A stretch of DNA of 64,000 bases from Escherichia phage pEC-M719-6WT.2: the sequence record OQ845958.1, one strand, 5' to 3'. Numbering within the stretch: the first letter of the stretch is position 1; each line of letters begins with the position of its first letter. The notes beneath the pieces are model-generated. The model had not been told where the DNA came from, ran no database searches, and saw nothing but the letters and a program-made list of their open reading frames with translations. A program made the translations under genes and the position numbers. Below are positions 15,013 to 15,703 of this stretch, in pieces.

Positions 15013-15248
15013 TGTCTGAACAAACTATTGAACAAAAACTGCAGTCCGAAATCGTTATCCTTAAATCCCGTATTCTGGACACTCAAGACCAGGCTGGCCG
15101 CATTAAAGCTGAATCTGACCAGTTTGTTAATGCACTTGGTCAGATTGCCCAATTGGTTGGCGTGACCGGTGAAACTGTTAAGCTGGAAGATGTTATCCAG
15201 GCTGTCGCTGATAAAATTGCCCCGGCCCCTGCAGCTGACGAAGAATAA
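15012..15248 (+). CDS. 57A: tail fibre assembly chaperone gp57A
   Basis: 78 aa, [28 protein letters not shown] matches recalled T4 gp57A. Confidence 0.8.
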
Positions 15249-15703
15249 TGACATTAAATGAAGTCTCTGAAGGACTTTATGTTGCAGCCAAATTTTCAGA
15301 ATTAACTCTTGATGCGCTGGAAAATCTCCAGCGCTCTCTTAAGGTACCTAATCCCGTTCCTCGTGAAAAATTCCATTCCACTATTTGTTATTCCAGAGTA
15401 AATATTCCATATGTTGTTGCTTCCGGTAGTTTCGAAGTAGCCAACTCTGGTCACCTGGAAGTATGGAAAACCGACGACGGCAGCACGCTGGTTCTTGTAC
15501 TGGATTCAGATTATCTTAGTTGCAGACATATGTATGCACGAGCCATTGGCGCAACACATGATTTCCCGGACTATACTCCTCATATAACATTGTCTTATAA
15601 TGTTGGTCCTTTGACGTATAAAGGAGAAGTTCAGATTCCGGTTGTTTTAGACCGTGAATATAAAGAACCGCTAAAATTAAATTGGTCGGCGGATTTAAAG
15701 TAG
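15248..15703 (+). CDS. 57B: 2H phosphoesterase gp57B (Acb1-like cyclic-oligonucleotide phosphodiesterase)
   Basis: 151 aa in T4 57B position; two H-x-T/S motifs (FHSTICY, PHITLSY) typical of 2H/LigT fold. Confidence 0.7.

Follow-up and report, generated by a model that had tools for sequence, protein, structure and literature searches.

Does the gene that directly follows 57A in this T4-like phage encode a nuclease that destroys the cyclic signals of host CBASS defence, or an enzyme of the same fold that acts on other substrates? The first-pass annotation, made from the letters of the sequence, had described an ORF at 15248-15703 with two H-x-T/S motifs (HSTI and HITL) and had proposed it as a 2H phosphoesterase and candidate Acb1, the anti-CBASS protein. 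Our analysis of the window, by which we mean the whole 64-kb stretch of DNA, finds this ORF with both motifs as claimed. Matches to the Pfam family PF23474, to the crystal structure 7T26 and to T4 57B, together with the overlay of a structural model, support the 2H phosphoesterase and Acb1 interpretation.

We put at about 0.93 the probability that the gene product is a functional Acb1 orthologous to T4 gp57B. This estimate rests on orthology, residue conservation, fold and synteny, with activity, substrates and in vivo effect carried over from the T4 and FBB1 enzymes. Acb1 was characterised in 2022, and the gene, here called acb1, is an ordinary orthologue of it; the finding itself is not new. 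In the record of Escherichia phage EAWsc9, whose DNA is 99% identical, the gene already has the label 'anti-CBASS protein Acb1'. The features discussed below are collected in Table 1.

Table 1. Positions of acb1 and of the genes and candidate signals around it, in window coordinates
Feature	Position	Strand	Basis or remark
Gene 1 (dNMP kinase)	14335..15012	+	Pfam DNMK, E = 7e-77; upstream neighbour as in T4
TATAAATA, T4 late-promoter consensus match	14794..14801	+	Inside gene 1, 211 nt upstream of 57A
Gene 57A (tail-fibre assembly chaperone)	15012..15248	+	Pfam GP57, E = 4.6e-25; PHROG 1002
acb1 (gene 57B orthologue)	15248..15703	+	ORF, 151 aa
Stem-loop after acb1	15715..15742	+	In 64-nt spacer; 7+3 base pairs, -13.9 kcal/mol
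Small Ip gene, first of five consecutive	15768-16100	+	Leader motif scan
Small Ip gene, second	16109-16381	+	Leader motif scan
Small Ip gene, third	16390-16689	+	Leader motif scan
Small Ip gene, fourth	16736-16978	+	Leader motif scan
Small Ip gene, fifth	17035-17289	+	Leader motif scan

Sequence and fold of the acb1 product

The acb1 reading frame on the plus strand is intact and full-length, from an ATG at 15248 to a stop codon at 15701-15703. Scanning the protein sequence for H-x-[TS] tripeptides located exactly two, HSTI at residues 43-46 and HITL at residues 112-115. About 0.4 such tripeptides would be expected by chance in a protein of this size (a rough estimate), and by themselves the two are weak evidence for a 2H identity. 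The homology statistics obtained with Pfam, 7T26 and T4 57B make the chance occurrence of these motifs irrelevant.

A Pfam profile search found PF23474 (Anti-CBASS protein Acb1) as the sole matching family, with an E-value of 1.2e-59 and a score of 200.6 bits, the curated cut-off being 27. In the protein the match runs from residue 8 to residue 148, and in the 144-position profile from position 1 to position 143. Among solved structures the best sequence match is 7T26 (E = 7e-63), which belongs to FBB1 Acb1 (7T26/7T27). Homologues of the product were found by tblastn in 1,478 phage records, and a search of NCBIfam returned no model matching it.

The alignment to T4 57B, named as a check when the claim was first made, shows significant similarity: direct comparison gives 126 identical residues out of 151 (83%), ungapped, with an E-value of 3e-99. 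T4 57B itself was identified as Acb1, the cGAMP-degrading enzyme of infected cells, by activity-guided fractionation, and the earlier statement that equated the two is correct (Hobbs et al., Nature 2022, PMC9117128). At the DNA level acb1 and T4 57B are 75% identical, their codons differing by 60 synonymous and 25 non-synonymous changes. This synonymous excess is as expected if acb1 is under purifying selection with its function maintained.

To model the fold we used AlphaFold on a 46-sequence alignment, resulting in a pLDDT of 90.6 and a pTM of 0.83, with low confidence over the last ~10 residues, which correspond to the putative lid. In a Foldseek search of the PDB the top hit is 7T26 (E = 1e-20, target-normalised TM 0.96, RMSD 0.9 Å over 136 columns), followed by 7T27 and then by the distant BCSR5 Acb1-type enzyme. 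Further down come 2H enzymes such as LigT, with E ~1e-4, a TM of about 0.4-0.55 and an identity of 12-16%. The structural check that had been proposed along with the alignment is covered by this overlay on the FBB1 Acb1 crystal structure, and both catalytic histidines align in sequence.

One alternative is that the product is a LigT-type 2'-5' RNA ligase or a 2',3'-cyclic phosphodiesterase that processes the ends of RNA, for instance during tRNA repair. LigT enzymes have the same fold and the same two HxT/S motifs, E. coli LigT is found by Foldseek (E ~2e-4), and 'RNA ligase' is both the description of PHROG 755 and the name given on many RefSeq records. However, none of the LigT-family Pfam models matches at E <= 0.01, leaving Acb1 alone to score, and the LigT comparison yields 12-16% identity and a TM of 0.43-0.53 compared to 68% identity and a TM of 0.96 for Acb1. 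Moreover, the T4 protein to which the product is 83% identical degrades cGAMP, and T4 that lacks it becomes sensitive to CBASS, being restricted by operons of Yersinia aleksiciae and E. coli (PMC9117128). With no LigT Pfam match and a structural likeness confined to the superfamily level, we rejected the LigT or RNA-ligase identity, which we regard as extremely unlikely. We read the 'RNA ligase' name as a fold-based label older than the 2022 work; in PHROGs and on many RefSeq records it is out of date for the Acb1 family.

Conserved residues and the predicted reaction

The catalytic HxT/HxT tetrad of T4 Acb1 consists of H44, T46, H113 and T115, while Y12, W74, F107 and W147 are its base-stacking aromatics and E141 its adenine reader (PMC9117128). 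The present protein is one residue shorter at the N-terminus, so that its numbering is that of T4 Acb1 minus one. All nine of the residues from Hobbs et al. 2022 are conserved in it: Y11, H43, T45, W73, F106, H112, T114, E140 and W146. The four tetrad residues H43, T45, H112 and T114 are invariant in an alignment of 46 family members with identity down to 28%. The segment that forms a flexible C-terminal lid over the ligand in T4 and FBB1 Acb1 (residues ~145-152) is present, including W146, and the last two blocks of the model have pLDDT values of 69 and 44. Such low values are expected for a mobile lid and by themselves do not demonstrate one.

The 25 substitutions relative to T4 Acb1 include D108P, beside the stacking residue F107 (T4 numbering), and, within the putative C-terminal lid, D146N, A148S and D149A. 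It is conceivable that they mark an Acb1 homologue of drifted activity or specificity, acting weakly or on a narrower range of signals, perhaps as a result of Panoptes-type pressure. Panoptes selects for loss of acb1 in T-even relatives, as seen in the nonsense mutation of Bas43 and in Bas35 escapers that are mutated in acb1 (PMC13577387). Here, however, each known substrate-contact or catalytic residue is kept, the reading frame runs uninterrupted to full length and the excess of synonymous changes favours maintained function. In addition, the nine further Acb1 homologues assayed by Hobbs et al. were all active (PMC9117128). We consider a drifted enzyme very unlikely.

A functional Acb1 would be made in the host cytoplasm during infection. 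By analogy with the T4 and FBB1 enzymes, it would bind cyclic di- and trinucleotides with one or more adenosines, such as 3'3'-cGAMP, cUA, cAAA and cAAG, and the cyclic messengers it targets would be the products of the CD-NTase enzymes of host CBASS. Residues Y11, W73, F106 and W146 are predicted to stack on the bases and E140 to read adenine N6, with the ligand becoming distorted. The H43/T45 and H112/T114 tetrad would carry out metal-independent acid-base catalysis, with cleavage 3' of adenosine. Attack of the 2'-OH on the 3'-5' phosphodiester would yield a 2',3'-cyclic phosphate intermediate and subsequently a linear product. Such a linear product would be unable to activate CBASS effectors, sparing the cell abortive-infection death and allowing the phage to replicate. 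An independent transposon sequencing study reported that 57B is dispensable on K-12 and depleted on a CBASS-carrying host, which supports a conditional requirement for the gene.

Gene order, expression signals and the internal-protein genes

By megablast the window belongs to the genus Gaprivervirus, T4-like coliphages of the VR7/SP18 group, and its closest GenBank record is that of EAWsc9, with 99.0% identity over 2.5 kb. The names SP18, VR7, VR20 and Gaprivervirus do not occur in the supplementary files of Hobbs et al. 2022. The order of genes in the window, gp2 (DNA end protector), gp3, gp1, 57A, 57B and the ip genes, is that of T4 (2-3-1-57A-57B-ipI). The gene had been placed at the 57B position, and this is right: it lies directly after 57A, which is recognised by its Pfam GP57 match, and the TAA stop of 57A shares one base with the acb1 ATG (TAATG). 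This overlap suggests that 57A and acb1 may be co-transcribed and translationally coupled. Only two tRNA genes were found in the window, back to back at 18792-18944, one with anticodon CAT (tRNA-Met according to ARAGORN, tRNA-Ile2 in EAWsc9) and the other tRNA-Arg(TCT); the equivalent part of the T4 genome has eight.

Gene 1 contains a sequence that fits the late-promoter consensus of T4 (Table 1) and from which 57A-acb1 might be transcribed late. A pattern search found 7 occurrences of TATAAATA in the window with 5.2 expected, which is not above chance, and since the motif is not enriched we treat the candidate at 14794 as a lead only. T4 likewise has a late-promoter match within gene 1, but at another position. 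A further TATAAATA lies at 16092-16099, inside the end of one Ip ORF and 10 nt ahead of the next, which starts at 16109, a location that fits late expression of a head-packaged protein. Scanning around acb1 for generic sigma-70 promoters and terminators gave nothing convincing.

The stem-loop in the spacer after acb1 has a weak z-score of -1.85 and is without a T-run behind it, and the terminator scan made no call there. The T4 spacer after 57B holds an unrelated and stronger hairpin (-17.4 kcal/mol, z = -3.6, at about 3902-3931 of the T4 segment on the minus strand). The stem-loop that follows 57B in both phages may be a conserved element marking the transcript end or affecting stability. The description of this locus as part of the early region is doubtful, as expression of T4 57B/acb1 has been reported to be predominantly middle/late (bioRxiv 10.64898/2026.03.30.715471).

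Downstream of acb1, the capsid-targeting leader known from T4 (MKTYQEF..E and variants) is found at the N-terminus of each of the five small Ip products. Four of the five have PHROG assignments to 'internal head/virion protein', while the first belongs to phrog_3966, a family of unknown function. The leader motif in all five and the PHROG assignments of four indicate that the injected-protein cluster described earlier beside acb1 is real. We predict from their sequences that the five genes encode internal head proteins, which would be carried in the phage head and enter the host by injection along with the DNA. Two more ORFs bearing the leader, at 28726-28995 and 29516-29815, bring the number in the window to seven. 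These seven fall into five or six different PHROG families and look like a hypervariable set of injected proteins.

Two of the corresponding genes carry other names in EAWsc9. The gene at 7469-7801 of its segment (window 15768-16100) is labelled 'profilin' and that at 8091-8390 (window 16390-16689) is labelled 'homing endonuclease'. The PHROG matches, to a family of unknown function and to internal head proteins respectively, together with the leader peptide suggest that both labels are mis-annotations.

The IPI protein of T4 is an anti-restriction protein that inhibits GmrSD. We compared it to the five Ip products and found 15-22% identity, with the likeness confined to the leader and the proteins assigned to different PHROGs. 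On these grounds we rejected the possibility that an adjacent Ip gene is a homologue of T4 IPI. The argument for an anti-defence island, based on acb1 adjoining ipI, has already been published for T4 by Hobbs et al. (PMC9117128), and such a reading of the acb1 neighbourhood in the present phage is plausible. An anti-defence role for the five Ip proteins is conjecture. It is possible, and in our view rather unlikely, that 15248-17289 forms a working anti-defence island in which at least one injected protein might inhibit a host defence that lacks a known phage inhibitor. Should this island reading be true, Acb1 itself would still be an ordinary orthologue.

Predictions from an intact acb1 and comparison with known systems

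The presence of an intact acb1 in this Gaprivervirus phage predicts a broad-spectrum anti-CBASS nuclease and, with it, a phage that resists many of the CBASS systems whose signals are cyclic di- or trinucleotides containing adenosine. Panoptes guard systems fire on depletion of cA3 or related nucleotides, and T-even relatives escape them by inactivating acb1 (PMC13577387). Because acb1 is intact, the phage is predicted to be sensitive to Panoptes guard systems as well as resistant to CBASS. A possible use of these predictions is in the choice of therapeutic phages and in host-range prediction. Beyond correct annotation, the acb1 finding matters little.

With respect to annotation, we also observed a cluster of 167 sequences (152 aa, 83% identity to the acb1 product) that is named from a 3-kb contig of an Enterococcus faecalis assembly. 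It may be the T4-type Acb1 cluster, and a T-even gene in an Enterococcus faecalis assembly suggests contamination of that assembly.

The closest characterised relative is T4 gp57B, or Acb1 (NP_049750.1), which is alike over its full length (83%) and has the same tetrad and stacking residues. In T4, too, 57B is found after 57A and before internal-protein genes, with the stop of 57A overlapped likewise. The two phages differ in that a single ipI adjoins 57B in T4 whereas five unrelated leader-bearing Ip genes follow acb1 here.

The Acb1 of the Erwinia phage FBB1, solved as apoenzyme (7T26) and with 3'3'-cGAMP (7T27), shares 69% identity with the present protein. Model overlays on it give an RMSD of 0.9-1.2 Å and a TM of 0.93-0.96, with the same compact 2H fold and probably the same C-terminal lid. 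The differences are an indel of one residue in a loop ('DDGS-TL' in the query) and F and Y at the positions where T4 and the present protein have W73 and F106. More remote is the Acb1-type phosphodiesterase of the Burkholderia phage BCSR5 (9Q2G/9Q2Y), which is detected by sequence (E = 7e-4) and by Foldseek (E ~4e-9). At ~18% identity, 165 aa and a TM of 0.56-0.72, it represents a distant branch.

The LigT/2H superfamily (E. coli LigT 5LDI, CPDases, Usb1 and viral 2',5'-PDEs such as rotavirus VP3) consists of larger proteins. Like Acb1, its members carry the two HxT/S motifs, fold as a pseudo-symmetric beta-sheet and catalyse transesterification without a metal. They act on RNA ends or 2'-5' oligoadenylate, whereas Acb1 acts on 3'-5' cyclic di- and trinucleotides.
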